Positions 6,001 to 22,537 of a stretch of 64,000 nt of DNA are shown here, piece by piece. The notes beneath the pieces were generated by a model, which saw only the letters and a program-made list of their open reading frames with translations, had not been told where the DNA came from and made no database searches. The stretch covers positions 96,001 through 160,000 of the forward strand of contig CAXXWQ010000003.1 in NCBI GenBank assembly GCA_963674945.2, given 5' to 3'. Numbering within the stretch: the stretch's first letter is position 1; every line of letters begins with the position of its first letter. The DNA is from an uncultured Desulfosarcina sp. Its GTDB lineage: Bacteria > Desulfobacterota > Desulfobacteria > Desulfobacterales > Desulfosarcinaceae. The translations under genes were made by a program, and so were the position numbers.

Positions 6001-7841
6001 GGATCGGAGACCTGATAGCTCAGAGAACCTTTCGGTGCGCTGCCGATGGTGAGAGAACCACCAATCGGCAGACTCTTCCCGAGGGTCAAATCATAGCCGA
6101 GTTCGTCTTTCAACTCTTCCGTCTCGGTCTGGTATGGGCCGATGGTAACCGAGCCGTTCAGCAAGCCGTTGAGGACGACGGTCCTTGCATTGATTTGCAG
6201 GCTGCCGGCGTCGGCACCCTCGATATACCCGGATGTCAGGGATTTCAGCGGTGAGGCGCCGCCCGTGTATATCCCGGAGAAGGTTTCAATGATCCCGAAG
6301 CGATCGTATTTGACCACGGTCTCATCCAGGATTCTGTCGTATTGAAGGTTCTCGGGGGCGCTGCTGATATCGTAAATAGTGTTGCCGCATAAAAGCTTGG
6401 TGGTTTGCACCGCGCCGGCTTCATAGACGTAACCGCCTCCACTGAAATCCAATTCGGCGTCGTCCCGGATGATGACTTCACCGACCCCGGCGTCGATGGT
6501 TATGTTGCCTCCCGCGGTCGCCCTTTCGGCAGCGGTTTTTTCCTCGGCATTCAAATAGCCTTCGACGATACCGATGCTGGAACCTTCACTCTTCTTGATC
6601 TGAACGGTTTCCCCTTTTAAATCGGACTCCTTTTGTTGGTAGTCATCCCTTAATTCGACGCTGTTCAGTTGAACGGAGACCACTTGATCCTCGGCCTGAC
6701 GTTGTGTCCATTCACCACTCACATCGATGGAACCGCCGCCACCCATGTAAATGCGGCCCTGGCTGCTCTCGACGGCCGTATCGTCCTCTGGTTGAAGGAA
6801 TAGGGTAACATTCCCGTTAGGCGCCTGTATGGCGCCGTTCAGTTCGATGTTGCTTCCGGCCTGTATCGAAACGGCTCCCGCAGAAAACGAGAAGCTTTCG
6901 TGATAGGCATCGGTCGATTCACTCACCGGCGTGCTGATCACGCTCTCTTCTCCGGTGCGAACCGTATCCGATGCGCGAAGTTCGATGACGCCCTGGTTGA
7001 CAACTGATGTCACGGCTCTTATCAACCCGTCATGGTTAACGACACCGCCATACAAACGGGTCGCACCACCGTCGGTTATGATTGCGCCTTCGGCGGTATT
7101 GGTGACGGTGCCGAAGCCATTCACCTCGAAACTTTCCGTAACCTGGCCTTCGCTGGTGAGTCCTTGGCTGTAATTGGCTTCGGTTCCCGCGCCGATGAAT
7201 ACATCTCCTTGCGGCGCTTCGATGGTTCCGCCGTTCACCACGTTGGGCGCCATCAGGAATACCTTGCCCGATGAGTCGGTCTCGATATGGCCGAAATTGG
7301 CAACGACTGCATCGGATTCCACTTCATCGCCGGAAAAATTCATGATTCCGTTCGTAAAATCGTCTTCCGCCATCATCAGGGCCGACGCTGCCAGGATATG
7401 CACATTGACCTGGGCATCTTTTGAAAACAGTATCCCGTTGGGATTGATCAGATAAACGGCACCGTCGGCGGTCAATCTCCCGTAGATCTGGCTAGGGTTT
7501 TGATCGAAAATTCGATTCAATGCAGCCCAGTTCGTGTTGTCCTGCTGGTCAAAGTGAACCATGGCGTCGGCGCCGATGTCGAATGATTCCCAGTCCAGCA
7601 TCGCCTTGGATTGGTTTTGGTGCACCACAAGCGTGTCGCTGCCCACCTTTTCAAGGTCTTTTACGCCGCTGATGATGTTCTGGATCACCGGCAACTGGTT
7701 TGCTGATGGCTGCACCAAGTTGCCCATGTTCCCATAGAAACCGGGGATGTTAGCTCCGGCAAAACTAACTGCCGGAAGAAAGGTCAAATCGAAGACCAGG
7801 AGAAGAAGCAGTATTTGTTTTCTTATCGTCGTTGGTTTCAT
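1..7841 (-). CDS. Filamentous-haemagglutinin-like TpsA exoprotein (partial, >2600 aa, 3' end beyond left edge)
   Basis: Manual translation from ATG 7841: MKPTTIRKQILLLLLVFDLTFLPAVSFAG (signal peptide)...AMLDWESFDIG...LNRIFDQNPSQIYGRLTADGAVYLINPNGILF (TPS secretion domain, NPNG motif). The same frame reads ...TQGIVNLGGGLLSV at positions 3-44. Absence from the ORF track fits a frame with no stop in the window. Adjacent to TpsB. Confidence 0.92.
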   Translation of the reverse strand, partial: MKPTTIRKQILLLLLVFDLTFLPAVSFAGANIPGFYGNMGNLVQPSANQLPVIQNIISGVKDLEKVGSDTLVVHQNQSKAMLDWESFDIGADAMVHFDQQDNTNWAALNRIFDQNPSQIYGRLTADGAVYLINPNGILFSKDAQVNVHILAASALMMAEDDFTNGIMNFSGDEVESDAVVANFGHIETDSSGKVFLMAPNVVNGGTIEAPQGDVFIGAGTEANYSQGLTSEGQVTESFEVNGFGTVTNTAEGAIITDGGATRLYGGVVNHDGLIRAVTSVVNQGVIELRASDTVRTGEESVISTPVSESTDAYHESFSFSAGAVSIQAGSNIELNGAIQAPNGNVTLFLQPEDDTAVESSQGRIYMGGGGSIDVSGEWTQRQAEDQVVSVQLNSVELRDDYQQKESDLKGETVQIKKSEGSSIGIVEGYLNAEEKTAAERATAGGNITIDAGVGEVIIRDDAELDFSGGGYVYEAGAVQTTKLLCGNTIYDISSAPENLQYDRILDETVVKYDRFGIIETFSGIYTGGASPLKSLTSGYIEGADAGSLQINARTVVLNGLLNGSVTIGPYQTETEELKDELGYDLTLGKSLPIGGSLTIGSAPKGSLSYQVSDPGIVEVVITDTETSLPDTFQADSSLGEIVSENGVNPYTTEYYDDGRPFYKTLLNTEMLSNANLSELQIHAATSLEIESGATLQLQAGGTLVGTARRILHEGAIQIPSGTVKLQTASNFTTDESTTSGSSNPDYIPQQLLGPERIQVTGGGVIEVGGERVDNALSMATKGEVRNGRLNGGKIELLDYANQGEGVVLEAGSSLIVNGGYQIAEDGTVSGGDGGKVDIRGTALILDGDLYGLSLLGQEGGTIDLQAETIDIVAESSTSFLNDGLTPSEGIPSNLLGSLRLAHDRLEDTGFSSIHLISVGDVTIETGAYLTPSNLKLTAPTPMKTADAAIGSGLGDEGVITVFDDFLGENEITIVAGALFSNEKKEYHNFDEATASWLDTTATVTLDDQAGLVAAIYGSIRIEASGIEIGGLLQADAGAISLVKRASSLEENTLHIQDGALLQVKGKNIVKLDESGAGIPSSGTALDAGAVSLESEGQLLFDSGATIDISAAEQTLHYLDTGDGILQGTWIAGDAGSVTFSYLRSEAQDGSLALKGTIDAGHAALDGVGGGSLTFKNNGGDGLRVDSQLVSLIGKDIASLQLISIKPIVFDHDHLALSLSERLGIDTPMIQIADSESGDDFPAIPEIRLSAQFVDISNNGTISSDSPVLGDATLIIDGVQGINVSGAISISNFSNVVLKTEEDLKVEELTYVSGNTGSWSGGLETAASMLLQSDQIYPTSQSRFVFHSSEGSIHIQNSDSGDPNALLSAGGTLIFAADTISQNGTVKAPMGEIVFCGDIRREKGDSGIWEENYTQAEQIVFGEKSVTSTTGEASVFYGALLAENNLSWEAFDHSYATSATVKSDVAAAPSSAVSVYSQAFLAEPSSTIDASGSGKIYSYRFDPGIEGSENPFEINGRMIILPDNPDLLDGAGVYFSGGSMLEAGEYALLPAEYAFVPGALIIEDQGAIDFVQQGTSSRENYTQLIGYLSEVGTDVQDATPHLFTIRPASEVLEEGLFEVKSYTAGDGGTINLLSDTTLIRGTMNIGGLDGFTPGTLVASGVNARLISDVSALADYNEVASLLSENAGNLILVVDDLFETDRGNIVVSARKNAAEDDSEKGGCVTLTQGTQLKATDITITAEGGIELQQESALQATDAGGTITLTSSGEIAIRENALVHAADTITLDTNHMDLEGSMISDNGMLALRSDMIQIVPDVQTASVSHGLVLSQSQWSAFSDYASIALTGRESVVLHDDVTLQVQGVLSIDTGLIAHQASAENHPANVVADQIVLHNTHEKTDANDLTDRGRILFRASSIDVGQGEIRIDGTKQVDLQSAGKLVFYGDGKLQTDADLTLLASAIGAEGLFGMDAVGEEIYVSTDFLVESTAGNITILSNEDAYDPADSFGGKLHFRAASIHHGGVIDIPAGTIIFESMGNSAADSIALQPGATINVDGNDYVAGGNVALLSELGGVRLQSGSVISVAAGTQGDAGGVEVTAANGKVLMEEGTLLATGTGVGGSFWMDSQNIGDLGDIANILAQGMFTHQIDLHSRQDGTGDSNLYLPADAVLQAQLVQLTADDGNIEIHGTITGMNDDTSSLITLNAGNDLTLAGNISIAGSRTSSTGAEVYLNAANGFITLSETALIDAENTGGGKGGVVYFRAQREGNEVKMDLDGRIQGAVQIIAEGFERIESAEIAAMAGGQASGAGVISQKDIAESAQGFIEELDWNADQLDAEGVAVTVVPGVEIVSDGDLAILDDWALTTERYGDDEVFGALTLRAAQSITFGGSITDEPYQFTSEDNPQFNSWVMRITAGADLESANVMAIDTSLDDGEGQLVISNGQLIYSESAPIWFASAGDTVIGLGKSVALTYGYLSSSLMSFNKTVRGQIGGSLEISGGAIQSYTGDVTLEIGDDLELKSRSDGRNNVMGSIRTVGLPSSDEDLRQQLWSEGGGDIHILVGGNVTGVPRDESEWDVSLLLTDSSGEKFYAHAANYGQSNEYGTQGIVNLGGGLLSV

Positions 7842-7898
7842 AATTCAACACTGTGTTAAGTATTAAGTGTTAAGAAAATGTGGAATGGCTTTTAATCA

Positions 7899-7937
7899 CC
7901 CCTCTCCCCTCAAGGAGAGAGGGTCGGGGTGAGGGGG
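7899..7937. repeat. REP-like palindromic element CCCCTCTCCC..GAGAGAGGG..GGGGTGAGGG
   Basis: cccctctcccctcaaggagagagggtcggggtgaggggg; a related degenerate copy lies at 12072-12110. Confidence 0.6.
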
Positions 7938-7992
7938 CAAAAATACCAAACAGTAAAATTCATCCCAGCGGCCGAAGACCATGGGATAAATT

Positions 7993-9603
7993 TTAAAATT
8001 GAAACTTGACCTCGAAATACCACTGCTGGTCACCTTTCTCCGTATTTTCCGTCGCCTTCAACGCGTATCCCCAAACAAATTCATAGATGAGGTATTCGGA
8101 AAGCTTTCCACGCACGCCACCTCCCGTTCCGGAAATGAATAGCGATGCGTCCTCTTGAGGAAGCGGGTGGATCAGGCGGAGATTAGCGAAGTCATAGAAT
8201 GCATAGAACGAAAGGTCCAAGGGTTCCCAAAGACCAAGCAGGCTTTCCATGTCCGGCGACCGCCATTCGAACATGCCGTGGACTGCCTTGTCACCTGCCA
8301 CTTCACTTTCCATATAGCCGCGAACACTTTTCATTCCCCCGGCGATATACTGCTCATTGGAAATCAACGGCTGGTCGGCGATCTGTCCATCGAGTCTAAT
8401 GAAAAGGCTGGAGTCCCATGGCATCTGCTGCACTCTATCCAGTCCGAGGGCCATGCAGATGTAATTGCCTCTGGCTTTAAAACGTTTGTCTTTGAATTCT
8501 TCTTCCTTGGTGGCCACACCTCGAAAGGCCAGATTTAGCGAACCGTTCAAGCTAGTGGATCCCCATTTGTCCGGCAAGGATGCGCCGTAAGAAAGCGTCA
8601 TGGGCATGTAGGTGACGGGAGTGCTCTCCGACTCGCCACCCTCCTCAGAGAAACTCAAGTCCTCGTCAAAATCCTTGTAGTCAAGGCCAAGGGTCAGGTT
8701 ATGACGAAAATTCCCCCGGGCGCCTAAGGGGATGATGTTGCGCAATCCGAGGATATACCCTTTTCCAATCACCTCGAAGCCCTGGCCGAATGCGGTATCA
8801 CTGTCTGAAATAACCCCATAAAGGGCCATCATATGGTTGTCGAACAAGGGGGACGGCATCACGTAGGAACCGGCGATGGCGCGGACCTCCTTCGTATCCT
8901 CGGGGCTCGTCTGGTATTGCAGGCTGATAGAGTGGTCACGTTGCCACAGATTGTCGTAGCGCAGCGACGTGTTCAGCCGAAGATCGGTCGTGGCATGTGT
9001 GGATCGGTTGTTGAGTTCCATGCTGCCGTGCAGTGGCAGCTTGTCTTTGACGCGCAATTCGATATCGATCGTTCCCAGATCCTTGCCAGGCATCAAAACG
9101 GGCGCCACTTTCATGTCCGGATTCCGATTGATCGCCGCCAACTCTTTTTGCACATTGGGAAGATGCAGGAACTGGCCCTGCTCCATGGAAGGCAGTTCCT
9201 TGAGGATCTTCTCCATGGTAAAATAGCGGTTGCCCACCACCCGCACCCGCCGCACCGTGCTCTCGATGACTTCCAGCCGAATCGTTCCGTTTTCCACGGA
9301 CTGTTCAGGAATGTTGACCAAGACGGTGGGGTATCCGTTCACGTGATAGTACTTTTCCAGAACGCTACGGGCTCTTTCGACGTCCTGAGAAGTTTTATTT
9401 TCACCAATGAACGCTTGCAGTTCGTTGGACAATGCTGCGTCGTCGAATATGGTGTTGCCACTGAGTTCATACAATTTTATGGGAAAACGGATTTCCTCCT
9501 GGCCCTCTTTGCAGGCCGCATCCTTGACGCCGATATGTGACATCGTAAAGCCCAAAAAAAAGACGAGAATAACAAGAGGCTGAAAAAAAAGTTTATCCGT
9601 CAT
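7993..9603 (-). CDS. TpsB outer-membrane transporter (ShlB/FhaC/HecB family)
   Basis: POTRA-like N-terminus (LEKYYHVNGYPTVLVNIPEQ), SVRGY motif of the L6 loop, C-terminal aromatic EVKFQF; directly upstream of TpsA. Confidence 0.93.
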   Translation of the reverse strand: MTDKLFFQPLVILVFFLGFTMSHIGVKDAACKEGQEEIRFPIKLYELSGNTIFDDAALSNELQAFIGENKTSQDVERARSVLEKYYHVNGYPTVLVNIPEQSVENGTIRLEVIESTVRRVRVVGNRYFTMEKILKELPSMEQGQFLHLPNVQKELAAINRNPDMKVAPVLMPGKDLGTIDIELRVKDKLPLHGSMELNNRSTHATTDLRLNTSLRYDNLWQRDHSISLQYQTSPEDTKEVRAIAGSYVMPSPLFDNHMMALYGVISDSDTAFGQGFEVIGKGYILGLRNIIPLGARGNFRHNLTLGLDYKDFDEDLSFSEEGGESESTPVTYMPMTLSYGASLPDKWGSTSLNGSLNLAFRGVATKEEEFKDKRFKARGNYICMALGLDRVQQMPWDSSLFIRLDGQIADQPLISNEQYIAGGMKSVRGYMESEVAGDKAVHGMFEWRSPDMESLLGLWEPLDLSFYAFYDFANLRLIHPLPQEDASLFISGTGGGVRGKLSEYLIYEFVWGYALKATENTEKGDQQWYFEVKFQF

Positions 9604-9665
9604 GAGCCGTTAACTTTCCGCTTGGAATGATGTCACTTGACGTAGGATCGCAAGAGCAGTCGGAA

Positions 9666-10949
9666 CTACCCCAATAGTGCATTATTGAAGGTATTCAGAA
9701 GATTCATCAGATTCGTTCGAACATCCCTCGACTCCTTATACCCGGACCATTTATCCAATACCTGACCGTCGGGGGTCATGAGTACGGTCATGGGGAATCC
9801 CTCTTGCCCGAAATATTTCATGAAAGCCTTGTTTTCGTCGGAATTGACTTTTATCCATACGTATTCATCCTTGAAATAGCGCACCCAGGGATCCTCAAAA
9901 ACACCGGCAAGCATTTTTTTGCAGTACTGGCACCAGTCGGCATAGAGAAACAGCAAAATGGGTTTGTTTAGATCGACTGCACTGGATGTACCAAATTCGA
10001 AGTCGTCGAACCACTCGACTTTCTGGTTGCCGAAAACGCTGGGTTTGACGATCTTCTCGATGGTATAGGTGACAATCACCTCGCGGTCGGTGTATTGGTG
10101 ATTCATGTCGACGATGACCTTTTCGTCTTCGACGCCGGTCACCACACCATGGCTAAATGGCGTACCGACCACCGGATTCATTTGAATGCGGATTTCACCC
10201 GCGGCTTCGTCCACCGTAACGATGACCTCACCGTAACTTTCTTCAATGGACTGATCGCTTTTGGGGAATAGCGTCAGATGAACCTGGGTCTCTTCGATTT
10301 CATCGATACGTGCCATTAAATAAGGATTGTAGGGTATCACCTGATCAAGGACCGGAAACGTCTTAAAACGTTTGAAAAAGCCGTCGGCATCAAACGTCAC
10401 ACGGGTCGGAAGTGTCCGGACGCGATCGATGGTGATGATTTTTCGCGGATCGTACGTACCGAAGGCGTTTTCCGGGGCCACCGTCACCTTGGTTTTCGTT
10501 CCGACGACGCCGTCTACCACTTTGGTGCCGAGCCCCATGGGGCTTGAGGGATCGCCGGCCAGCACGAGCACTTTCATTTTCTTGGCGGCGGCTTCCTTTT
10601 TTTCCTTCTCGGAAGTTATCGTTTCGGAAGAGTCTTCGTCGCGGCTGTTGGAGAAGGAGACGAAGGTACCATCGGTAAGTTGCGCCTGATACGCAAGGAT
10701 CACGTAGTCACCGTTTTGGACAACATCCTTTTTCTCTCCAACAAACAGATTCAGACTTTCTGAGCCGTCGCTCTCCATCTGCCGGAGGGCATCTTGAAGT
10801 TCTTTGGCCACGACTTCCTTTTCTTTTGTTTCGCTGTGCGCCGCCGTTTCCCCGGATGTTGTCATAGCCCGGTTTTCGGTCGCACAAGCGGCTATCACAG
10901 AAAGCCCCACAAGAATTGCCATCGCGATACACCATGTACGTTGAGACAT
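9666..10949 (-). CDS. Lipoprotein with FKBP/SlyD-like PPIase region fused to a C-terminal thioredoxin-fold domain
   Basis: Lipobox VIAAC; FKBP-like segments (VTVAPENAFGTYDP, VIVDMNHQ); FLYADWCQYCKKM CxxC motif. Confidence 0.8.
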   Translation of the reverse strand: MSQRTWCIAMAILVGLSVIAACATENRAMTTSGETAAHSETKEKEVVAKELQDALRQMESDGSESLNLFVGEKKDVVQNGDYVILAYQAQLTDGTFVSFSNSRDEDSSETITSEKEKKEAAAKKMKVLVLAGDPSSPMGLGTKVVDGVVGTKTKVTVAPENAFGTYDPRKIITIDRVRTLPTRVTFDADGFFKRFKTFPVLDQVIPYNPYLMARIDEIEETQVHLTLFPKSDQSIEESYGEVIVTVDEAAGEIRIQMNPVVGTPFSHGVVTGVEDEKVIVDMNHQYTDREVIVTYTIEKIVKPSVFGNQKVEWFDDFEFGTSSAVDLNKPILLFLYADWCQYCKKMLAGVFEDPWVRYFKDEYVWIKVNSDENKAFMKYFGQEGFPMTVLMTPDGQVLDKWSGYKESRDVRTNLMNLLNTFNNALLG

Positions 10950-10989
10950 CGTCCGTTCTCCTTCTACCTTGTGCTATGGTTGATGGCCA

Positions 10990-11856
10990 CTAGGGCCGCG
11001 TTTTGTCCGGCTGCAGATTATGAACATACACATCGCAATCGAGCGGTTTTCCGCCAAAGGGATGCCCCCAGTCGATCCAAAACCATTCTTCCTCGATGCG
11101 ATCGACCCGGCCTATCAGTTGGCCAGCCCGGACGATTTCGCCGACCCTGTTCTCGGTGATCATCCAGTAGTTTTTTTCGTCGATTTTCACCAAATGTTTG
11201 TGCCCCAATGGGTCCGGAATCATCAGACCATCTTCAAACAACAGGTTGCAAGTGATCCACTCGCCCTTGATCTCACCGAAACGGAGTTGGGTACCGGGCA
11301 AAACTTCGAAATCCACCGTATCGCCGGGTCCAATATTCTCGCCGTATCTTTGCCTGGTGACAGCCAGCCCGGAATCGAATACCAACGGCAGCCTGCGCCT
11401 GCGTTTTATTTTGGTGTAGCGCTCGTTTTTCTGAATATTCGGCGGAATTTCTCCCTGAATGGAAATTTGCATTCTTCTGTCGTAGGGCTTGTTCACGATG
11501 CCGTTGGCGAGATAAGCGGGAACTGAAAATTCCAAAAACTCCGCCACGTCCCGCTGGAGCATATAGTTAAGGGCCTTGTCGCCCGCCGTTGCGGACACGG
11601 GACCGTACTCACGCAGAGGCATGAAGTTTTTGTTGGCCGCCTTTTTCCCCTCGGCCGCTATGGCTTTTGCCGCATCGGTGGTGATCATCAGGGACCCATC
11701 GGGAAGGTAGCAACTGTAGTCGATCATCACTGCGTCACCCGGTTGGACCAACACATCCGGTTTCACCATGCCCGCGCATCCATATACGCTCGCGATGCAT
11801 ACCGCTGCCGCCATTGCCAGCCATCTCATGCGCATGTTACCCATTGCCTGTATCAT
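10990..11856 (-). CDS. FKBP/SlyD-like lipoprotein (true start may be a few codons downstream)
   Basis: Lipobox VYGC; VQPGDAVMIDYSC at N-terminus and WIDWGHPFGGKPLDCDV at C-terminus resemble SlyD DxNHPLAGK. Confidence 0.75.
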   Translation of the reverse strand: MIQAMGNMRMRWLAMAAAVCIASVYGCAGMVKPDVLVQPGDAVMIDYSCYLPDGSLMITTDAAKAIAAEGKKAANKNFMPLREYGPVSATAGDKALNYMLQRDVAEFLEFSVPAYLANGIVNKPYDRRMQISIQGEIPPNIQKNERYTKIKRRRRLPLVFDSGLAVTRQRYGENIGPGDTVDFEVLPGTQLRFGEIKGEWITCNLLFEDGLMIPDPLGHKHLVKIDEKNYWMITENRVGEIVRAGQLIGRVDRIEEEWFWIDWGHPFGGKPLDCDVYVHNLQPDKTRP

Positions 11857-12071
11857 AATTCCGATCCCACTGTGTTGTACTTTGATGTTGGTTGCCGGAT
11901 TGCATTGAAAATGCCCTTCGAAAAGAAAAGTCTTTTATGAACAAGGTTTGTTAGATATCAATTAGAAAAGATAAGAATTTCGATCGCGGGACGATGATTT
12001 TTTGTGGTGTGGATTTTCCGCGAAATAAGGGATCCTGTTTTACAGCATGTGCATCGCAGATCAGACGGTGT

Positions 12072-12110
12072 CCCCTCACCACTTTAGGGAGATGGGGACA
12101 GGGTGAGGGG
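12072..12110. repeat. Degenerate REP-like element (same family as 7899-7937)
   Basis: cccctcaccactttagggagatggggacagggtgagggg. Confidence 0.45.
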
Positions 12111-12186
12111 AGAAAAAGATTCTCATGCCCATGGAAAGGTTCGCCCGATGTCATGCGCCGACGGTTCACCGGGAATTCAGATAAGT

Positions 12187-12216
12187 ACGGGGCCGCACTG
12201 CTACGTGCGGCCCCGT
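12187..12216 (-). terminator. 12-bp GC-rich hairpin after the PstS-like gene (terminator or mRNA stabiliser)
   Basis: acggggccgcac-tgctac-gtgcggccccgt perfect inverted repeat; only a weak U tract on the minus strand. Confidence 0.6.
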
Positions 12217-12278
12217 GGTACGAACAATTTCGCCATAAGGTATTCGTCCGGATGACGAAACACCTTCGGATGCGGTAA

Positions 12279-13694
12279 TTATTTTACGCTAATACCGGTT
12301 TTGCAGCTGTCACGGATGACCTTCATCTCATCCTGGGAAGCCCAGAATTCGTATTTCGAGGTGGCGTCCAGGTTGGTCGGGTTGGACATGTAGGCCATCA
12401 GAGCGGCGACGTGCGTTTGAGCGGCATCGGCGTTGGTGGCGATGACGTAGTTGGCGCCCCAGAAGTCGTAGCGGCCGTTTCTGATGTTGTCACGTTTACC
12501 GATGTAGCCCTGGTAGTTGACGCGGCAGGCGCCGCTTTCGCAAGGATTGGTGAGGTCTCCCTTCTTGTCCGAATCGGCGTAACCCACGGCGCCGGCGTAA
12601 GAACCGACACATTCGATTTCGTCAGAGGAGCCTTTGTTGGTGAGAGTGCGGGGGACGACACCGGAGGTGACGGCAGATTCGTCGTAGGCGTAGGCGATCT
12701 GGGCCAGCGATTGGGGACGCACGACGGACCAGTCGAGGGTGGCGTGGGTACCGGAACCGGCATGGCGGATACACACTACGACATCTTGGCTGCTGTATCC
12801 GAAAGTATTCCAGTCGGTGACCTGCTGGGAGAAGAGCATCTGAGCCTGGGGTCTGCTCAGGTTGGTAACCTCGCCGCCGAGGGAGGCTTCATTGACGAAG
12901 AAAGAGAAGGGCACGATGATCGGCTCGAAAACGGTGAACAGGTCCAGATCGGGTTCGATCGGGGTGAAGATTCTGATCCACCATTTCGCGTCATCGGCTA
13001 CGGGAAACGCGGTTTTGCTCTTTCCGAAGATGCCACCGCCCATGGCGGTTTCCCAATCGCTGATGCGACCGCCTTCCGGGCCCCAGGTGTCGTGATTCTT
13101 GGGTCCGTAGGTGGACTGGTCGAAGCAAATCGGATCGATATCGGAGGTACCCAGGGTGATCTCCTTACAGGTCAAACCGATGGTCACGCCGGTGTCGGCG
13201 GGAGCCGGAATTGTGTTGATGTCAGACCAGGCGCTGACGGCGGCCTCATTGGCCATCAGTCGCTGGGTTGCCGTGCAACCGGTGTCGGGAGTACCACAAT
13301 CGGTTGCCGCACCCGTATCGATCGCGGCGCAGACGCCTTCGGCAGAGGCGAAGGTGGTATACCGGATGGCGATGGTGTCGCCGACGTATCCGGTACGCCG
13401 GGCGCCGGCCTGAGATCCGCCGATACCGATGTTGCCGAAATCGCCGCCGTCGCAAATGGCGATACCGGCGTCACGGTCTGCGGCAGGTCCTGCGTCTTCC
13501 ATCTGGGCGTGACCGATGTCGGAGGTCCCACACTGCATATAGTCTCTCAGGAACTGGGGCGCACCTTCCGTCCAGTATGCGTACTGGGCCGAGGCACCGA
13601 AGATATTGACTTCGCGAAGTTGGGCGGCGGCGGGTACGGCCATCGCCACGGCCATGGAACCGATCATCAGACCCTTAACGATTTTACCTAACAT
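12279..13694 (-). CDS. Secreted Cys-rich PstS/PBP-fold substrate-binding-like protein
   Basis: Signal peptide (AVPAAA); VNIFGASA, GTSDID, CIRHAGSGTHATLD and GAVGYAD motifs typical of the PstS-like fold; 12 Cys. Confidence 0.75.
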   Translation of the reverse strand: MLGKIVKGLMIGSMAVAMAVPAAAQLREVNIFGASAQYAYWTEGAPQFLRDYMQCGTSDIGHAQMEDAGPAADRDAGIAICDGGDFGNIGIGGSQAGARRTGYVGDTIAIRYTTFASAEGVCAAIDTGAATDCGTPDTGCTATQRLMANEAAVSAWSDINTIPAPADTGVTIGLTCKEITLGTSDIDPICFDQSTYGPKNHDTWGPEGGRISDWETAMGGGIFGKSKTAFPVADDAKWWIRIFTPIEPDLDLFTVFEPIIVPFSFFVNEASLGGEVTNLSRPQAQMLFSQQVTDWNTFGYSSQDVVVCIRHAGSGTHATLDWSVVRPQSLAQIAYAYDESAVTSGVVPRTLTNKGSSDEIECVGSYAGAVGYADSDKKGDLTNPCESGACRVNYQGYIGKRDNIRNGRYDFWGANYVIATNADAAQTHVAALMAYMSNPTNLDATSKYEFWASQDEMKVIRDSCKTGISVK

Positions 13695-13765: not shown

Positions 13766-14446
13766 TTAGATTTTTTTACGACGAACGCCGATCAAGCCCA
13801 GAAGACCGGAACCCATCAACCAGGCGGCGGCGGGAACGGGAACTTCGCTTACATCGGTGGGTCCCTCGATAATGAAATCGGCGGTACCGTTGCCATTGTT
13901 GATCATCTTGATGGTGGCATAGTTCAACGGGTCGCCGGTGACGCCTATTTGAGTCCAGAGGTACATCTCATCTTCGGCGTCCGTCAGGTTGCCTTTTCCA
14001 TCTCCCAGGGCGATCAGCCCCTTCAAGGACGGAGTCATCATGTTCATGAAAGAGTTTTGGTCGGCGGTGAGGTGTTCGACGCCGTAGTCGTTGTTTTTGG
14101 ATACGTAGTCTGCTGAGGACCAGAATGAGTTGATGAAGGTGGGTTTGGCTGCGCCGTCCGCCTGCTGCTCATTGATACCCCAGCCCAACCATCCGCCGTT
14201 GTAGGTTGCAAACAAAGAAAAACCGGTGTAGCTGCCGATTGAGACGTCGTCCAGCAAGGTCGCGCCAAAGTTGTCGGCGATGTCGCCACTACCGGTGTCA
14301 TAGCCGGCGCCGAGGTCGTAGATGATTTCGTGGGTGTCGTTGTACATTACCAGGTTCACTGCAAGGGGGGCGAGATCGGCGGAAGCGGTGCCGGCGACGC
14401 CAACCATGACCATAACACCTAAAACAGCTGCGAAAACCTTTTTCAT
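13766..14446 (-). CDS. VPLPA-CTERM (PEP-CTERM-like) sorted surface protein
   Basis: GGAGGT RBS before ATG 14446, signal peptide MKKVFAAVLG...ASA, C-terminus VPVPAAAWLMGSGLLGLIGVRRKKI. Confidence 0.9.
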   Translation of the reverse strand: MKKVFAAVLGVMVMVGVAGTASADLAPLAVNLVMYNDTHEIIYDLGAGYDTGSGDIADNFGATLLDDVSIGSYTGFSLFATYNGGWLGWGINEQQADGAAKPTFINSFWSSADYVSKNNDYGVEHLTADQNSFMNMMTPSLKGLIALGDGKGNLTDAEDEMYLWTQIGVTGDPLNYATIKMINNGNGTADFIIEGPTDVSEVPVPAAAWLMGSGLLGLIGVRRKKI

Positions 14447-14772
14447 TGAATCTACCTCCAAAAATAGTCGATTGATTGTTTTCCAGGCAGATCAGCCATC
14501 CGGCACACGCCTCGTGTTTTCGGTCCCGTAGGCGAGGCTCGTCTCGCCTTCACTTTAATTCCCGTTGGACTCGAACCGGTTACATGGTACTGTTTGTCGG
14601 ACCTGTATCTTTCCGCCCTCCGGTCTCCCGGAGTTTGGCTTTTTCTGGAGGTTGACTGCGAAAAATAAGAAACAAATGGATTACACGGATGATCTTACCA
14701 AGGGTGAAACATGCACTTTTCTTTTCTCAAGAGTTTTCTGCATCACCTCCCCTCTCGGATTTTGTAATAGTC

Positions 14773-14817
14773 AAAAAAAATAGCCCTGAGAACGATTGAC
14801 TTCTTGTTCTCAGGGCT
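14773..14817 (-). terminator. Strong intrinsic terminator overlapping the RNA motif
   Basis: Minus strand AGCCCUGAGAAC-12-nt loop-GUUCUCAGGGCU-A-U8 (perfect 12-bp stem). Confidence 0.88.
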
Positions 14818-14855
14818 TTCTGGTGCCTATATACTTCAGGTCAGCAAAGTACCCC
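14813..14855 (-). promoter_or_regulatory. Candidate cis-regulatory RNA hairpin (antiterminator-like), single copy
   Basis: GGGG-UA-CUUU-G-CUG-A-CC-loop-GG-CAC-CAG-AAAG-CCC; matches the array units at 20033-20379; its 3' strand is shared with the terminator stem. Confidence 0.7.
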
Positions 14856-14983
14856 GCTGTTTGTTTTTTGTTTTTACGGATTGAATGTTAGCTGATTATG
14901 AGTGCGATATTATAATTCAATTAACTTCCGAGTTTCTGGCGCAAAGCCCGAATATTACAATTGTGATGGGTTTCCTGTTCTGC

Positions 14984-17900
14984 TCATCTTGCTTGATGCT
15001 GGATGATTTTTATAGCCGATACGGCCATGGCAACGAACAGACAGGCAACAAACCCCATAATCCACGAGGTGCCGGCCGGCAGCGACCCGACTGTGCCGAC
15101 AAAACAGGATGATCCGCCGTCACCGCTGCCATTGTTCTGTCCACTCAACCGTCCGCTTTCGTTGGTAGCGGCAATCGTATACAAGGAGAAATGCTCGATT
15201 TCGCAAACCAGCATGTTGTTCTCTTCGTCCACCTTTTTCACGGCGATCGTTTCCCAGCGGCGATCGACTTTATCGTACGTATAGGCCATGAGGAACGCAG
15301 GATTGATCCCACCGGCCGCCTTTAAAGCGGCTTCGGTATAAGGAATGTTAATGGTGATCGGCATGTTGAACCAGGTACCCGATGGGCCAAAATCGATTAC
15401 CTTGCCCACAGGCACTAAATCGGAATCCATGGTTGGTATGCCGAGTCCAGTTGCCTCGCCGATGGAAATGGTTGTCGTTGTTCGTAAGGCACCGGCAGGA
15501 ATGATGACTTGCGTGCCGTTTATGGCGCTGCCAGCATCGGTAACTTTTATAATCGTGTTATAGGGAACCGTAAGATCGTAGATGCCTTCCTCCACGACCA
15601 TGATTTCAGGCTCGGTGCTACCGTCCAGGTCCACCGTGAAGCTGAATACCGATGTCCACCACGAATCATCATTGACGATCCGGGCACGCCAATAATAGGT
15701 GGTTTCATCTTCGAGATCTTCATCGACCCGCCATGCGGTCTTGCCGACAGTGGTTTGGCCGACCGCGACCCTTCCCGTTATCGCGCTGTCACGGTACACC
15801 TCAAATTCGACTTGAATGGACGATTTATTGTCTTCCGACACTACCATTACGCCGATCACCGGCGTCTGTGTGTTGACGGTTCCGCCGTTGAATGGCACAG
15901 TGGGAATTATTCCCGGTGTTGCCGTGGCCGCCTGGCTCACGCTCACATTCACATCCCGAAAGACCGTGTCCGTTCCGTCGCCTACCGTCAGGGTGAAGGT
16001 ATAGTCGTTGGCGCCGTTATCCGCATAGGCTGGCGCAGTGAAAGTCACCGACACCCCTGTTTTGGGGAAATCATCGATATCATCGGACGTGGACCAGATG
16101 TAGGTCAGATCATCCCCATCGGCATCGCCAGCCGTTCCGCTCAAGGTCACCGTGGTGCCCTCAACGGCCGGATTGGGGGAGGCCGTGATACCGGATATTA
16201 CCGGCGCAGTATTGTTCTGGCTGACGGTGAAGGTGACGTCCCGGGCGGCCGAGTCCGTGCCGTCGCTTACCGTCAGGGTGAAAGTGTAGTCGTTGTCTCC
16301 ACCCTCAACGTATGCCGGCGCGGCAAAGCTCGCCGTAGCACCGGTCTGCGGAAACCCGCCAACCCCTTCTTCCGTGCTCCAGGTGTAAGTCAAGGCATCC
16401 CCGTCGCCATCGCTGGCCGCGCCGCTCAAGGTTACTGTGGCGCCTTCGGCGGCCGGGTTGGGGGATGCCGTTGCGCTGGATATTGTCGGAGCCGTATTTT
16501 CCGAGGTGACGGTGAAGGTGAAAGTCTGGGTAACCGAATCTGTGCCGTCGCTCACCGTCAGCGTGATAATATATTCATTATCACCACCATTAATGAAGGC
16601 CGGCGCCGTAAAGGACCACAGTTGCTTGTCCGTGGGCAATCCGGCGAGGGGCCTGGCCGAAGACCATGCGTACGTCAGCGCATCTGTCACATCGACGTCG
16701 ATCGCCTCTCCGGATATCAACACCCGCGTTCCCTCGGTGCCCGAATCGGGATCTATTGTTGCATTCAAAATCACGGGGGCAGTGTTGCCCTGGGTGACGG
16801 TAAAAGTGACGGCCGCGGTGTCCGTGTCCGTGCCGTCGCTCACCGTCAACTTGAAGGTGTAGACGTTATCCCCGCCGTCCACGTAGGCCGGTGCGGTGAA
16901 GCTCGCAGTGGCGCTGGCCTGCGGAAAGCCGCCGAGCCCGTCGCCCGTGCTCCAGGTGTAAGTCAAGCCGTCCCCATCGCCGTCGCTGGCCGTTCCACTC
17001 AGGGTTACTGCTGTTCCTCCGGGGCCCGACACGGGCGACGCCGTCGCACTCTTGATTTCGGGGGGCTCGTTGGTCTGGGAGGCGGTGACGGTAAAAGTGA
17101 CGGCCGCGGTGTCCGTGTCCGTGCCGTCGCTCACCGTCAACTTGAAGGTGTAGACGTTATCCCCGCCGTCCACGTAGGCCGGTGCGGTGAAGCTCGCAGT
17201 GGCGCTGGCCTGCGGAAAGCCGCCGAGCCCGTCGTCCGTGCTCCAGGTGTAAGTCAAGCCGTCCCCATCGCCATCGCTGGCCGTTCCACTCAGGGTTACT
17301 GCTGTTCCTCCGGGGCCCGACACGGGCGACGCCGTCGCATTCTTGATTTCGGGGGGCTCGTTGGTCACCGGAGGATTTAGAATGACGCTGCCGTCGGGAT
17401 CGATTCGTAGCGCCGCGCAGTAGTCCGTACTCTGATCCGGGCCCCGGTTTAGAGAGAATTCGCCATCAAGAAGTATGTTGTGGTATAAGTACATGGTTAC
17501 GGATTGGCCTTCGGCCAGGGGGGCCAGATTTACCTCTCCGGTTTCGGCATTACGGTTAAAACCGGCGAAGAATCCCCCAGGAAAAACGCCTCTGTTCATT
17601 TGGGTATGATAGGCGTTATCTCCGGCCGCCTGCCCCACAAAGATACCGCATTGTGGGTTATCTATACAATTTAAGTACATCTTGTTTGCTGAACTGAGAA
17701 AATTACTCATTTGGCTTTTGCTGATATTCGGCTCTACTTTTGATGTGGTCGCAAATATCATGTGTGACCCAAAAGTACTAGATGATGATAAAAATGAAAA
17801 AAAAGTGGCATTTAACTGGCTCCAATCGCTTACTGCGGAAAAATCTTCCAGTCCAAAGCCTTGTTCGACAAGTGGATAATCACGCTCACTGTAAAAGAGG

Positions 17901-18130
17901 TTGTAGCCGGGGGTAACTTCATCCCATGTAAAAAAAAATCCCAAGTCCATTAACATTTCATTCGTACTGGGGTCATATATCACCATTATAAGATGAAAGT
18001 CTGTAAAATCAGGAGTTTCGGAATGAACTTTTGTGACAAACAGAAAGAGGAATGCGAAAAGGAAAACGGATACCCTTTTTGCTATATCATCTTGGAATGC
18101 TTTCAATTTATCCTCTTGATATATCGCCAA
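14984..18130 (-). CDS. Surface protein: N-terminal domain, five PKD/Ig-like repeats, ZU5-like region and GGxxCF-type C-terminal membrane anchor
   Basis: Repeats of the type N(E/T)xPxI..ATASP...VTLSG.ASD.DGD.LTYTWS...F.AP...YTF.LTVSDGTD; ends GDGGSSCFVGTV + TM helix + basic tail. TTG start uncertain. Confidence 0.85.
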   Translation of the reverse strand: MAIYQEDKLKAFQDDIAKRVSVFLFAFLFLFVTKVHSETPDFTDFHLIMVIYDPSTNEMLMDLGFFFTWDEVTPGYNLFYSERDYPLVEQGFGLEDFSAVSDWSQLNATFFSFLSSSSTFGSHMIFATTSKVEPNISKSQMSNFLSSANKMYLNCIDNPQCGIFVGQAAGDNAYHTQMNRGVFPGGFFAGFNRNAETGEVNLAPLAEGQSVTMYLYHNILLDGEFSLNRGPDQSTDYCAALRIDPDGSVILNPPVTNEPPEIKNATASPVSGPGGTAVTLSGTASDGDGDGLTYTWSTDDGLGGFPQASATASFTAPAYVDGGDNVYTFKLTVSDGTDTDTAAVTFTVTASQTNEPPEIKSATASPVSGPGGTAVTLSGTASDGDGDGLTYTWSTGDGLGGFPQASATASFTAPAYVDGGDNVYTFKLTVSDGTDTDTAAVTFTVTQGNTAPVILNATIDPDSGTEGTRVLISGEAIDVDVTDALTYAWSSARPLAGLPTDKQLWSFTAPAFINGGDNEYIITLTVSDGTDSVTQTFTFTVTSENTAPTISSATASPNPAAEGATVTLSGAASDGDGDALTYTWSTEEGVGGFPQTGATASFAAPAYVEGGDNDYTFTLTVSDGTDSAARDVTFTVSQNNTAPVISGITASPNPAVEGTTVTLSGTAGDADGDDLTYIWSTSDDIDDFPKTGVSVTFTAPAYADNGANDYTFTLTVGDGTDTVFRDVNVSVSQAATATPGIIPTVPFNGGTVNTQTPVIGVMVVSEDNKSSIQVEFEVYRDSAITGRVAVGQTTVGKTAWRVDEDLEDETTYYWRARIVNDDSWWTSVFSFTVDLDGSTEPEIMVVEEGIYDLTVPYNTIIKVTDAGSAINGTQVIIPAGALRTTTTISIGEATGLGIPTMDSDLVPVGKVIDFGPSGTWFNMPITINIPYTEAALKAAGGINPAFLMAYTYDKVDRRWETIAVKKVDEENNMLVCEIEHFSLYTIAATNESGRLSGQNNGSGDGGSSCFVGTVGSLPAGTSWIMGFVACLFVAMAVSAIKIIQHQAR
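16793..17366 (-). repeat. Near-perfect tandem duplication, 291-bp period (97 aa)
   Basis: 16793-17075 and 17084-17366 are identical apart from about three substitutions seen by eye. Confidence 0.92.
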
Positions 18131-18267: not shown

Positions 18268-18450
18268 TCATTTTTTTAAAATTTCCTCAAACTTCTCTAC
18301 CCGCCCGACATTGCCCTGGGTGTAGTTGATCTTGATGTAACCGGTAAAATTGCTACTCCGTATACTCATCAAGTACTCGAACAGCCTCTTAATCTTTTCA
18401 CCCTGAGGGGACTTTGGTTTTTCAATGACTTTTGCCGGCATATTTGACAT
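18268..18450 (-). CDS. Small basic protein, DUF2292/YezD-like
   Basis: 60 aa; helix followed by FTGYIKINYTQGNVGRVEKFEEILKK, resembling the G-x-hydrophobic strand-G-strand-E pattern of DUF2292. Family assignment by eye only. Confidence 0.6.
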   Translation of the reverse strand: MSNMPAKVIEKPKSPQGEKIKRLFEYLMSIRSSNFTGYIKINYTQGNVGRVEKFEEILKK

Positions 18451-19552: not shown

Positions 19553-19939
19553 TTACGCTGTTTCCTCGCAAGAGACTTTCACCTTGGTAATCCGTTCCAA
19601 TCGCATTTTCTGAAAATCAAACACCTTTGGAACTCGAAAAATCCGATATTCCTTGTCGAAAGACAGTGCCATGCCGCAACCATTGGCACGAATCACATGG
19701 CCACTTAGTTTGATACAGCTGTTGTGGGTCGTTCCGAACAATTCATCGCGCTGAACCAATAACTCGATCGACACCTTTTTTCCAATGGGAAGTTGAAGAT
19801 CGGTCTCTACCAACGCGCCGCCGACACTCACGTTGGAAGTAACCGTCTGGCATTGCACGTTTCCGTTCAAATCGTCCGAAGCAAAGATCAAGCAGGGTAA
19901 TTTCAGGTTGAACCGTCTTTCGGTTCGGCACTCTTCCAT
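19553..19939 (-). CDS. PilZ-domain protein (c-di-GMP receptor)
   Basis: RTERR (RxxxR) and NVSVGG (D/NxSxxG) motifs; AGGAG RBS. Confidence 0.85.
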   Translation of the reverse strand: MEECRTERRFNLKLPCLIFASDDLNGNVQCQTVTSNVSVGGALVETDLQLPIGKKVSIELLVQRDELFGTTHNSCIKLSGHVIRANGCGMALSFDKEYRIFRVPKVFDFQKMRLERITKVKVSCEETA

Positions 19940-20032
19940 GGACGACTCCTTTACCTTTTACGCTTTGTCGATAATTCCGGTTCATCGAAAGTTCAAAAAA
20001 GATGCACGAAGAGCCCTTCGCGGCACTTCCCG

Positions 20033-20379
20033 CGGGTTTTCCGGTCCCAACAAAAAACGATGGTCGGCAAAAATCCCGGGTAAGTTTTCAAAAGGGCTCT
20101 CCGGTCCCGAAAAAAATGCGGTCGGCAAAGGTCCCGTATGGATGTGGAAAAGGGCTTTCCGGTGCCGGATATACCGGTCGGCAAAGGTCCCGGTTGAAAT
20201 CACCCCGGAGTTTTCTGATACCGGCGTGACGCCGGTTGGTAAAAGTTCCGGGTAGAAATTCGGGGTTGGAGGCAGATATCTCGTCCCAATCTTTGTATTT
20301 GGAGGCCAACAAAGTATCCGTGGTGCTTTTCCGTTGGACTTTCTGGTGCCCCTTTTGTCCAAGATCGACGAAATATCCA
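20033..20379 (-). ncRNA. Tandem array of six copies of a candidate structured RNA motif (53-68 bp period)
   Basis: Units at 20033-20078, 20094-20135, 20152-20191, 20205-20251, 20273-20320 and 20335-20379; plus-strand consensus GGGCTTTCYGGTSCC-N(variable)-GGTCGGCAAARKWCCC; compensatory changes between units. Confidence 0.72.
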
Positions 20380-21074: not shown

Positions 21075-21776
21075 TTACATGTATCGCGCCACCCACAATG
21101 TTGCTTCCAGACGGTTTTTCACTTCGATTTTCCTGTAGATGTTGAAAATGTGGCTTTTCACGGTGTTCAGACTGATAAAATATTCGGTGGCGATTTCACT
21201 GTTGGTGGCACCGGCGGCGATAGCGATTAAGATCTCCTTTTCACGTCGGGTCAGTTTGACTTCGGCCGTCACAATACTCGCCCGATAGGCCCGTGAGTCC
21301 ATGAGAATTTCGGAAGTGGTTTTACGGGAATACCACAACTCGCCATTTAATATTTTCTTAATCCCCTTGAGGAAGTACTGTGGCTTCTCATCGGCATAAA
21401 AGACACCGCGAATTCGTTTCTCAATGGCTTGTCGTTCAAAGGCAGCACCGACTTTCGGATCGATATTGAATAGTGCAATGGGCTGATCCAGTGGATTGGG
21501 CACCCCGCCAAGGTTGAGTTTGAACCAGATTGCATTGGCATCCATGGAAAAACTGTCCCATAGGATAAGATCAAAAGGGCAGGCTTCATCGCTGCAGCTC
21601 CAATGTTCCATTATTTCAAAATCGCTGTTTTGTTCCATTCCATCGTTCAATACCGCCTTGAGCAAACAGTTCTGAAAGGCATTTTGGCCGACCAAACCAA
21701 TTCTCCAACGGGCACCATCCGGTTCCAAGGTTTGTTTGTCTTCCATTGTGGCGCGTGTCTCAAATTCTGGCAGCAT
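21075..21776 (-). CDS. LuxR-family regulator, VpsT/CsgD-like
   Basis: Degenerate REC domain, GIRGVFY-like segment (RIRGVFY), GELWYSRK, C-terminal LTRREKEIL...TVKSHIFNIYRKI HTH. Confidence 0.88.
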   Translation of the reverse strand: MLPEFETRATMEDKQTLEPDGARWRIGLVGQNAFQNCLLKAVLNDGMEQNSDFEIMEHWSCSDEACPFDLILWDSFSMDANAIWFKLNLGGVPNPLDQPIALFNIDPKVGAAFERQAIEKRIRGVFYADEKPQYFLKGIKKILNGELWYSRKTTSEILMDSRAYRASIVTAEVKLTRREKEILIAIAAGATNSEIATEYFISLNTVKSHIFNIYRKIEVKNRLEATLWVARYM

Positions 21777-21847
21777 AGGTACCTTTCAAAATCGGATGTT
21801 TATGTAAAAGACAATTCACAAAACGTCTGTAACGGGCTTGGGTGATG

Positions 21848-22537
21848 CTATTTCTCAACACCCCGAAAACGGTAGCCAACACCGCGAACCGTTTCGATAT
21901 AGCCGGCGCAAGCTCCCATCTTGCGTCGTAGGTTGACGATGTGCATACCGATACTGGTTACGGCACAATTTTCCCCATGAATCGATTTGGCAATTTCCGA
22001 ACGGTTGAATACCCAGCCGGGTTTTGACATCAGAATTTTGAGCAGTTTGAATTCACTGGCAGTCAGGTGAATGGGTTGGCTTTCAATACAAACCTTGTGC
22101 CTTCGCAAGTCGATGTGCAATCCATTATATCGTATCGTGGTGTCGTTGTTTTTCGGTTTATCAGATCGTGAGCGAAGCACGGCCCGTACACGTGCGGTCA
22201 GGACGACAGGATTGAACGGTTTGGTGATAAAATCAGCGGCCCCTGAATCCAAATACGTTATGATGTCCTGCTCGCTGCTGCTGCCTGAGAGCATCACCAC
22301 CAGAATATGCATCGTATGCATGTTTCCTTTTAGCCGCCTGATTACCGACAACCCATCCATGCCCGGCAATATGGTATCTACGATCAATAGATCAATCGAA
22401 TTCGACTTGACGACTTCCAGTGCCTCTTCCCCGGAATCGACTGCAATTACCTGAAACTTCAACCTGCGAAGGCACTGATAGATCAAATCACGATACACTT
22501 CATCAGCGTCAGCGACCAGTATCAAATCTTTTCCCAT
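21848..22537 (-). CDS. OmpR/PhoB-family response regulator (no adjacent kinase)
   Basis: REC (LLIVDTILPGMDG, ITKPF) and winged helix ending IETVRGVGYRF. Confidence 0.92.
   Translation of the reverse strand: MGKDLILVADADEVYRDLIYQCLRRLKFQVIAVDSGEEALEVVKSNSIDLLIVDTILPGMDGLSVIRRLKGNMHTMHILVVMLSGSSSEQDIITYLDSGAADFITKPFNPVVLTARVRAVLRSRSDKPKNNDTTIRYNGLHIDLRRHKVCIESQPIHLTASEFKLLKILMSKPGWVFNRSEIAKSIHGENCAVTSIGMHIVNLRRKMGACAGYIETVRGVGYRFRGVEK

Follow-up and report, generated by a model that had tools for sequence, protein, structure and literature searches.

A conserved hairpin overlapping an intrinsic terminator as a candidate protein-dependent attenuator of PEP-CTERM surface-protein genes in an uncultured Desulfosarcina

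In the BglG/SacY/LicT systems, as outlined in the available part of PMC4347634, a protein stabilizes a RAT hairpin, part of which is shared with an intrinsic terminator; the default state is OFF, and the RAT sequence comprises 23 to 30 nt. ANTAR proteins, according to the same part of that source, act in trans as antiterminators at several leaders, each with two tandem stem-loops. Tandem riboswitch logic gates also are known, including AND gates in which the elements are arranged serially before adhesion or surface genes (PMC9481103, in its available part).

We analyzed a stretch of 64,000 nt (the window; contig CAXXWQ010000003.1, positions 96,001 to 160,000) from the genome of an uncultured Desulfosarcina sp. 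(GCA_963674945.2). An element on its minus strand (Table 1) resembles the BglG/SacY RAT arrangement in that a hairpin partly overlaps an intrinsic terminator and the default state is predicted to be OFF. The RNA-binding unit would likewise be of about 55 to 60 aa, given that the Pfam model of the CAT domain has 57 positions. However, the hairpin is longer than a RAT (42 to 55 nt across homologues), the candidate protein stands alone with no sensor domain, and its targets are surface-protein and polysaccharide genes rather than genes for sugar utilization. The CAT domain (PF03123) had no match in the source genome, which is 98.7% complete, and 4 of 14 control genomes were positive. Because of the missing CAT domain and the longer hairpin, we do not regard the element as a member of the BglG/SacY RAT group. 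The likeness to riboswitch expression platforms and RAT-type antiterminators drawn in a preliminary description of this DNA stands for the overlap geometry but not for membership in a described family, as the CAT domain is absent from the genome and no Rfam model matched the hairpin, either in the window (at gathering cutoffs or at E ≤ 10) or in 20 + 20 homologous loci. As far as the available part of PMC4347634 permits comparison, the element would share with ANTAR systems the trans-acting protein antitermination at several leaders, but it uses a single irregular hairpin with bulges and is not an ANTAR target; the one ANTAR gene of the source genome (G000) is unlinked, about 340 kb away on C3.

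We consider it fairly probable that the element is a local, protein-dependent attenuator that gates a PEP-CTERM surface-protein regulon by antitermination, in series with c-di-GMP, and that it is similar to but not one of the BglG/RAT systems. The RNA family, the protein family, and the regulon are new, whereas the mechanism is of a known kind, and a protein of 60 aa encoded nearby is a strong candidate for the trans factor. No description of the hairpin with this protein was found in the databases and literature searched, from which most subscription papers were absent. The main texts of PMC5737381 and PMC11109978, in their available parts, hold no matching motif, and their supplements may include an unnamed or terminator-class motif; PMC9788692, judged from its available part, proved not relevant. 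With this system, the few protein-dependent antiterminators would gain an RNA family and an RNA-binding protein family, both undescribed so far, and a minimal 60-aa protein with a 45-nt RNA makes for easy testing in vitro. It would also give a handle on PEP-CTERM/VPLPA-CTERM gene switching in sulfate reducers, Geobacteraceae, syntrophs, and Nitrospirota, and would exemplify a two-input leader that responds to a protein plus c-di-GMP.

Table 1. Features of the window that bear on the candidate attenuator
Feature	Positions	Strand	Evidence or remark
Conserved irregular hairpin (candidate antiterminator)	14813..14856	-	R1 57.4 bits, covariation
Intrinsic terminator: 12-bp stem, 12-nt loop, A, U8	14773..14817	-	base pairing, folding, terminator scan
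Extended Shine-Dalgarno (SD)-like box, no start codon at suitable spacing	14743..14750	-	recurs 3′ of terminator in homologues
c-di-GMP-I riboswitch aptamer with 92-nt insertion	14482..14648	-	RF03167 52.8 bits, E 1.4e-10
VPLPA-CTERM (PEP-CTERM type) surface protein gene, putative first gated gene	13766..14446	-	TIGR03370 27.7 bits, cut-off 25.35
PstS-like/PBP-superfamily secreted protein gene	12279..13694	-	next to VPLPA gene at homologous loci as well, on its 3′ side
Two lipoprotein-like genes, of which one has a thioredoxin-like domain, plus an ShlB/FhaC transporter gene	7993..11856	-	
TPS (filamentous haemagglutinin-type) passenger gene, extends past window edge	3..7844	-	
PKD-repeat surface protein gene, between small gene and attenuator	14984..18130	-	same order in relatives
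60-aa gene (small gene), candidate RNA-binding antiterminator	18268..18450	-	helix 15-31, beta-hairpin 37-55
PilZ-domain gene directly past array	19553..19939	-	PF07238
Three clear tandem hairpin copies (array) without overlapping terminators	20031..20195	-	R1 43.9-53.8 bits
Three degenerate tandem copies	20207..20379 (about)	-	k-mer/pattern scan and alignment
CsgD/VpsT-like LuxR regulator and OmpR-type regulator, upstream of array	21075..22537	-	

Architecture of the leader and the putatively gated genes

The hairpin at this site comprises 42 nt (14854 to 14813, minus strand) and is built from a 3-bp base, a 2-nt bulge, a 4-bp stem, a bulged G, a 3-bp stem, a 1x3 internal loop, and a variable top stem-loop. 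It had been proposed that the AGCCC at the 3′ end of the motif also begins the 5′ arm of a perfect 12-bp terminator stem with U8. Indeed, the five bases 14817 to 14813 are common to the 3′ end of the hairpin and the base of the 5′ terminator arm, and the arms (14817 to 14806 and 14793 to 14782, minus strand) form 12 of 12 Watson–Crick pairs, followed by a single A (14781) and then U8 (14780 to 14773).

The terminator region folds with a z score of -5.7, and none of 200 shuffles was equally good. The hairpin by itself is no more stable than its shuffles (z -0.6), and so the evidence for it is comparative. When the region was folded, the terminator formed the MFE structure at -30.0 kcal/mol, compared with -17.9 kcal/mol for the hairpin-enforced state, which places the terminator state ahead by 12.1 kcal/mol. 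Folding of partial transcripts predicts that the hairpin persists until the 3′ arm of the terminator emerges. In our own scan, this terminator is the cleanest within positions 1 to 23000; a generic terminator scan missed it because its loop exceeds 8 nt.

Two additional features were observed on either side of the element. A perfect -10 hexamer at 14909 to 14914 of the minus strand, about 55 nt upstream of the hairpin and without a good -35, is possibly an activator-dependent leader promoter. On the other side, the SD-like box 3′ of the terminator has counterparts in 39 of 142 homologous copies, against an expectation of 0.011 per 180 nt; they are located 20 to 200 nt past the hairpin, and a start codon is mostly absent. 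We take a STAB-SD-like stabilizing role to be a candidate function for this box.

The position of the element relative to its neighbors agrees with that reported earlier, in that 128 nt separate the PKD-gene stop (14984) from 14856, where about 130 nt had been given, and 327 nt separate 14773 from the likely ATG of the VPLPA-CTERM gene (14446), where the estimate was about 330 nt. The long ORFs from 14446 to the start of the window are all on the minus strand and cover 14.4 kb, in keeping with the more than 14 kb of co-oriented genes previously noted. These genes may form one transcript, and control may extend as far as the TPS gene. Within this stretch are a 422-nt gap (11857 to 12278) and a hairpin near 7943 to 7990 ahead of the TPS gene, and a REP-like 30-nt element is present in two intergenic copies (7914 to 7943 and 12088 to 12117). 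In the PKD gene, repeats of 285 to 291 nt occupy 15935 to 17366, and two of them are 99% identical, the mark of a recent duplication.

The leader contains a c-di-GMP-I riboswitch aptamer 3′ of the terminator and ahead of the VPLPA-CTERM gene. Like the 60-aa gene, it had been missed in the preliminary description, which allowed for an internal promoter in this interval. Its match to RF03167 spans model positions 1 to 80 of 80 and scores below the gathering cutoff of 59 bits; RF01051 matches the same element in part (32.9 versus 35 bits). Orthologous riboswitches at the same position pass the cutoff, with 64.2 bits at locus L158 and 60.0 bits at L162. In the predicted unbound fold, the 5′ strand of P1 pairs with the SD of the VPLPA-CTERM gene (14459 to 14455), and enforcing P1 largely frees this SD. 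From folding, we therefore predict that it acts as a translational ON switch. Eighteen loci carry both elements, and the riboswitch is downstream of the hairpin in 16 of them and upstream in two. It begins only 17 nt past the U-run in three loci and is 16 to 17 nt upstream of the hairpin in two, a close spacing which indicates that both belong to one leader. The serial arrangement before surface genes is the same as in the tandem riboswitch AND gates described in the available part of PMC9481103, except that here an undescribed hairpin, probably read by a protein, provides the first input.

Conservation of the hairpin and occurrence of the 60-aa protein

A pattern representing the hairpin, with no terminator included, was run on GTDB species genomes and returned 58 loci, labeled mostly as Geobacteraceae, Syntrophobacteraceae, Smithella, Desulfobacterales, and Nitrospirota. 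Two of them (L055 and L059) derive from assemblies labeled Bacteroidota/Pedobacter, yet resemble Geobacteraceae-type loci, which we attribute to misbinning or transfer. An overlapping terminator, defined as a stem that pairs with the last bases of the hairpin and ends in a U-run, is present at 48 of the 58 distinct matches versus 25 of 600 random AAAGCCC sites in the source genome, although the loci are related and partly redundant, and so these counts and their Fisher values overstate independence. Other AAAGYCC sites of the same loci (50 of 128 positive) are invalid as a control, because most of them re-read those terminators from the opposite strand or fall on hairpin variants, and the source-genome control was used instead. 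A covariance model (R1) produced 92 matches in 80 protein-selected loci, three of which were weak or cut and were removed. By an overlap test that is looser than the one applied to the pattern set and that makes false calls on two array copies, 72 of 78 distinct R1 matches with enough flank have an overlapping terminator. Homologous motifs therefore do overlap terminators, which the preliminary description had offered as a check of its proposal. Beyond the five shared pairs, the terminator stems of homologues are unrelated in sequence, and thus it is the geometry that is conserved, not the terminator.

Nucleotide covariation supports the hairpin, with two-sided changes in 8 of 13 pairs, a score matched by none of 500 shuffles, a similar result from a second alignment, and 96.8% of alignment cells paired compared with at most 60% in slid registers, although both alignments lean toward the structure because one (A4) was made with a fixed pattern and the other (A5) was fitted to the model. 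The bases of the bulges and the internal loop are near-invariant, and the top of the hairpin is freely variable. A DNA site, such as one for sigma54 or a transcription factor, was ruled out as an explanation because substitutions on one side of the stem are compensated on the other and because the terminator invariably follows 3′ of the hairpin on its own strand. Folding favors the terminator state in every one of 90 distinct homologues, by a median of -11.8 kcal/mol, which, together with the result at this locus, suggests a default OFF state. The earlier proposals that the two structures are mutually exclusive and that a stabilized motif would switch the downstream genes on are supported by this uniform preference and by an overlap that is conserved across unrelated stems.

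A PEP-CTERM-like tail was recognized by regex among the first two downstream ORFs at 28 of 58 loci, and VPLPA-CTERM or PepA models matched 18 of 55 downstream proteins scanned. Other downstream products include haemagglutinin-type TPS proteins (2), glycosyltransferases, a UDP-GlcNAc epimerase, a subtilase, and an alkaline phosphatase. In most of 8 relatives, the small gene is followed, with or without an intervening large surface gene, by the hairpin-terminator, then by a PEP-CTERM gene and a PstS-like gene, and in some relatives a fused copy precedes both the PilZ gene and the small gene.

The gene for the 60-aa protein is present once in the source genome. A total of 124 homologues and, separately, 244 clusters at 50% identity were found, and the gene shows a coding pattern of 514 synonymous versus 306 non-synonymous codon differences in 53 genes. 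The protein matches no Pfam or NCBIfam family and no recognized RNA-binding fold. It is predicted to consist of a helix and a beta-hairpin (pLDDT 83), and searches with this fold are uninformative because it is so small (Foldseek gave no match at E ≤ 0.001; best VIA Z 3.0). Viral contigs contained no relatives of either protein alignment.

The small gene and the hairpin are frequently neighbors. In 12 of 58 pattern loci, one of which is a duplicate, no more than 70 nt separate the end of the gene from the hairpin core. Conversely, 62 of 80 protein-anchored loci contain a hairpin match of any kind, and among the 71 that are informative (nine were left out as too short), a hairpin follows within 500 nt on the same strand in 53 and is absent within 500 nt in 18; in genome G023, there is none in 14 kb around the small gene. 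The two components also co-occur across genomes. In an order-level sample of 151 genomes, the RNA was detected in 12, the protein in nine, and both in eight, whereas in a family-level sample of 65 genomes the RNA was detected in 16 and the protein in 10, all with the RNA. The phylum-level sample of 151 genomes yielded three with the RNA, and the same three have strong protein matches; one further weak protein match lies inside a longer frame. All five Geobacteraceae genomes with no gene at the motif locus carry it elsewhere, each time beside a hairpin. The protein was undetected in 6 of the 16 RNA-positive genomes of the family sample and in 4 of the 12 of the order sample, and the near-complete genomes G345 and G015 have terminator-coupled hairpins with no protein detected. 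In two of the six family-sample cases, the copies examined include only a subtype whose hairpin does not overlap its terminator.

One protein gene with several hairpins per genome fits a trans factor and not a leader peptide. Leader-peptide attenuation was ruled out, since the gene is single-copy and located 3.4 kb from the 14813 to 14856 hairpin, while the hairpins are multi-copy. Judging from sequence comparison, the 60-aa protein is probably the partner of the hairpin, which it would bind to let transcription read on.

Proposed mechanism and alternative explanations

In the mechanism we propose, RNA polymerase would make the hairpin first, and this structure would fold while the terminator is still incomplete. 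For the unbound RNA, folding predicts that the 3′ arm of the terminator strips away the last five bases of the hairpin and that transcription stops at about 14773 to 14780. The 60-aa protein, made from its gene upstream, may instead bind the conserved bulges and internal loop, hold the base of the hairpin closed, and block invasion by the terminator arm during transcription. The remaining terminator stem would then have 6 to 7 bp and be displaced from the U-run, such that the polymerase reads on. In the read-through RNA, the ribosome site ahead of the VPLPA-CTERM gene is predicted to become accessible only with c-di-GMP, and a protein gate followed by a c-di-GMP gate would make the leader work as an AND gate. 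The same protein could act in trans on further copies, for example a second fused hairpin-terminator in the source genome (G000 C3 15871-15919). More speculatively, terminator-free copies might titrate the protein, and positive feedback might arise where a fused copy lies upstream of the small gene. For a 60-aa protein, 12 kcal/mol is a large gap to overcome, unless switching is under kinetic control.

The presence of terminator-free tandem copies upstream of the whole 20-kb region, the length of surface-protein operons, and a second NusG-domain gene in the source genome would suit processive antitermination, wherein the hairpin is a loading site similar to those of lambda nut or NusG-paralogue systems and the small protein, with or without a NusG paralogue, modifies the polymerase to pass this terminator and later ones. 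We find this unlikely, as most copies are fused to a terminator of their own, which processive systems do not need, every tandem hairpin-terminator unit has its own hairpin, and the window holds no second clean terminator downstream. Moreover, tandem copies in an array were seen in only one other genome (two copies in L030) and in none of 8 related regions examined.

A hairpin that binds a metabolite, an ion, or a signaling nucleotide, with the small gene merely a co-inherited member of the regulon, is an explanation to which we assign a low probability. Such an orphan riboswitch would account for the near-invariant bases and the expression-platform geometry, for the frequent pairing with c-di-GMP riboswitches (tandem riboswitch logic being known), and for the RNA-positive genomes without the protein. 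However, the small gene is usually directly upstream of the hairpin and is thus not its target, and the presence and absence of RNA and protein match across genomes. The tandem copies with no platform, the simplicity of a hairpin whose top varies freely, and target genes that suggest no metabolic ligand also argue against a small-molecule sensor.

Stabilizing the hairpin can only take base pairs away from the terminator, which wins unaided in every homologue, and fused copies precede co-oriented genes. These facts make it very improbable that the protein binds for another outcome (RNA processing, stability, or the promotion of termination) or that the hairpin marks short stand-alone RNAs with the overlap being secondary, even though the non-overlapping subtype, with its separate terminator about 30 nt later, and the start-codon-free SD-like box past many terminators would be in accord with such a role. 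Finally, the absence of any switch, in which a plain terminator ends the PKD transcript and the VPLPA operon has its own promoter at 14770 to 14650, is scarcely credible, since, although riboswitches often have their own promoter and the 124 nt from the U-run to the riboswitch leave room for one, a weak scan found no sigma70-like site there on the minus strand, the spacing is only 17 nt in three homologues and the order reversed in two, and a plain terminator would not keep a 42-nt covarying hairpin.

Additional hairpin copies and a possible relationship to DUF2292

The element had been called the seventh copy of a motif. Four copies in the window pass R1 (14810-14858, 20149-20195, 20091-20139, and 20031-20081), whereas the three upstream copies needed to reach seven are degenerate and have no R1 match at E ≤ 10. 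The terminator-free array is a candidate decoy or loading array. CsrA/CsrB operate by decoy logic, with one small protein and many sites, and the tandem copies could similarly titrate the small protein as putative decoys; unlike CsrA/CsrB, the action here would be on termination, and the site and fold are unrelated. A weak terminator-like hairpin with U6 (19975-20030, minus strand, -10.2 kcal/mol) is situated past the array and does not overlap its last copy.

The source genome contains nine R1 matches at E ≤ 1. The second fused hairpin-terminator lies ahead of another PEP-CTERM-type gene, and by regex two of the seven PEP-CTERM-type genes of this genome are preceded by a fused hairpin. Another hairpin (L002 10463-10590; G000 C3 40462 on) has a bidirectional terminator 35 nt further on, beyond which no gene lies in the same orientation, and is a candidate decoy RNA of about 130 nt. 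The non-overlapping subtype, found at L004 12792-12835 minus (G000 C3 1888791-1888834), L166, L171, L181, L182, L183, and L184, is preceded by a conserved stretch of 50 nt, is present in genomes that lack the small protein as well, and looks like a stand-alone small RNA. Three paralogous small Cys-rich ORFs with two CxxC motifs (L001 9247-9507 plus, L002 10045-10269 minus, and G000 C3 2343750) were also noted, two of which adjoin hairpin copies; they did not recur at the other loci examined and were discarded as a component of the system.

The DUF2292/YezD/OscA family offers a parallel, in that a small gene is followed by a hairpin able to overlap a terminator, and the proteins have a similar helix-Gly-strand-Gly-strand-EK pattern. 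A shorter hairpin lies 3′ of the gene in five of seven DUF2292 loci, with terminator overlap in one (L151), and the words CUGACC and AC(C/U)(A/G)G are common to the hairpins of both systems; we found no description of the DUF2292/YezD/OscA downstream hairpin in print. The present hairpin differs by an extra 7-bp lower stem, and the regulon is different. Profile comparison of the two protein families gave a weak match (hhalign probability 16%, E 0.0016), the Atlas DUF2292 cluster ranked 20 in similarity to the 60-aa protein (0.79), and the A3 profile scored five of six DUF2292 members above at least 98% of their own shuffles, at only 0.7 to 8.2 bits. PF10055 (DUF2292) matched none of 96 members of the 60-aa family at E ≤ 1 among the families listed and has no match in the source genome, R1 found no match at DUF2292 hairpins, and none of seven DUF2292 genomes in the phylum sample carries the hairpin RNA or the 60-aa protein. 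The DUF2292/YezD hairpin system may include the present one as a distant branch, and a true link would suggest what a widespread but functionally uncharacterized family does.

A broader proposal, which we advance tentatively and think more doubtful than the local mechanism, is that this is one branch of an unrecognized superfamily of micro-antiterminators, comprising stand-alone helix/beta-hairpin proteins of 45 to 60 aa, including DUF2292/YezD/OscA, each with its own hairpin. This branch would be the master switch of a PEP-CTERM surface-protein and polysaccharide (floc/biofilm) program in Desulfobacterota and Nitrospirota, would act in series with c-di-GMP riboswitches, would be self-amplifying where a gated copy is upstream of the protein gene, and would be thresholded by decoy arrays.

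Tandem hairpin-terminator pairs were observed directly 3′ of the small gene at a number of loci (L013, L019, L026, L058, L066, L082, L102, L104, L107, L115, and others), with such units found in Smithella and Nitrospirota, where they could sharpen the response.
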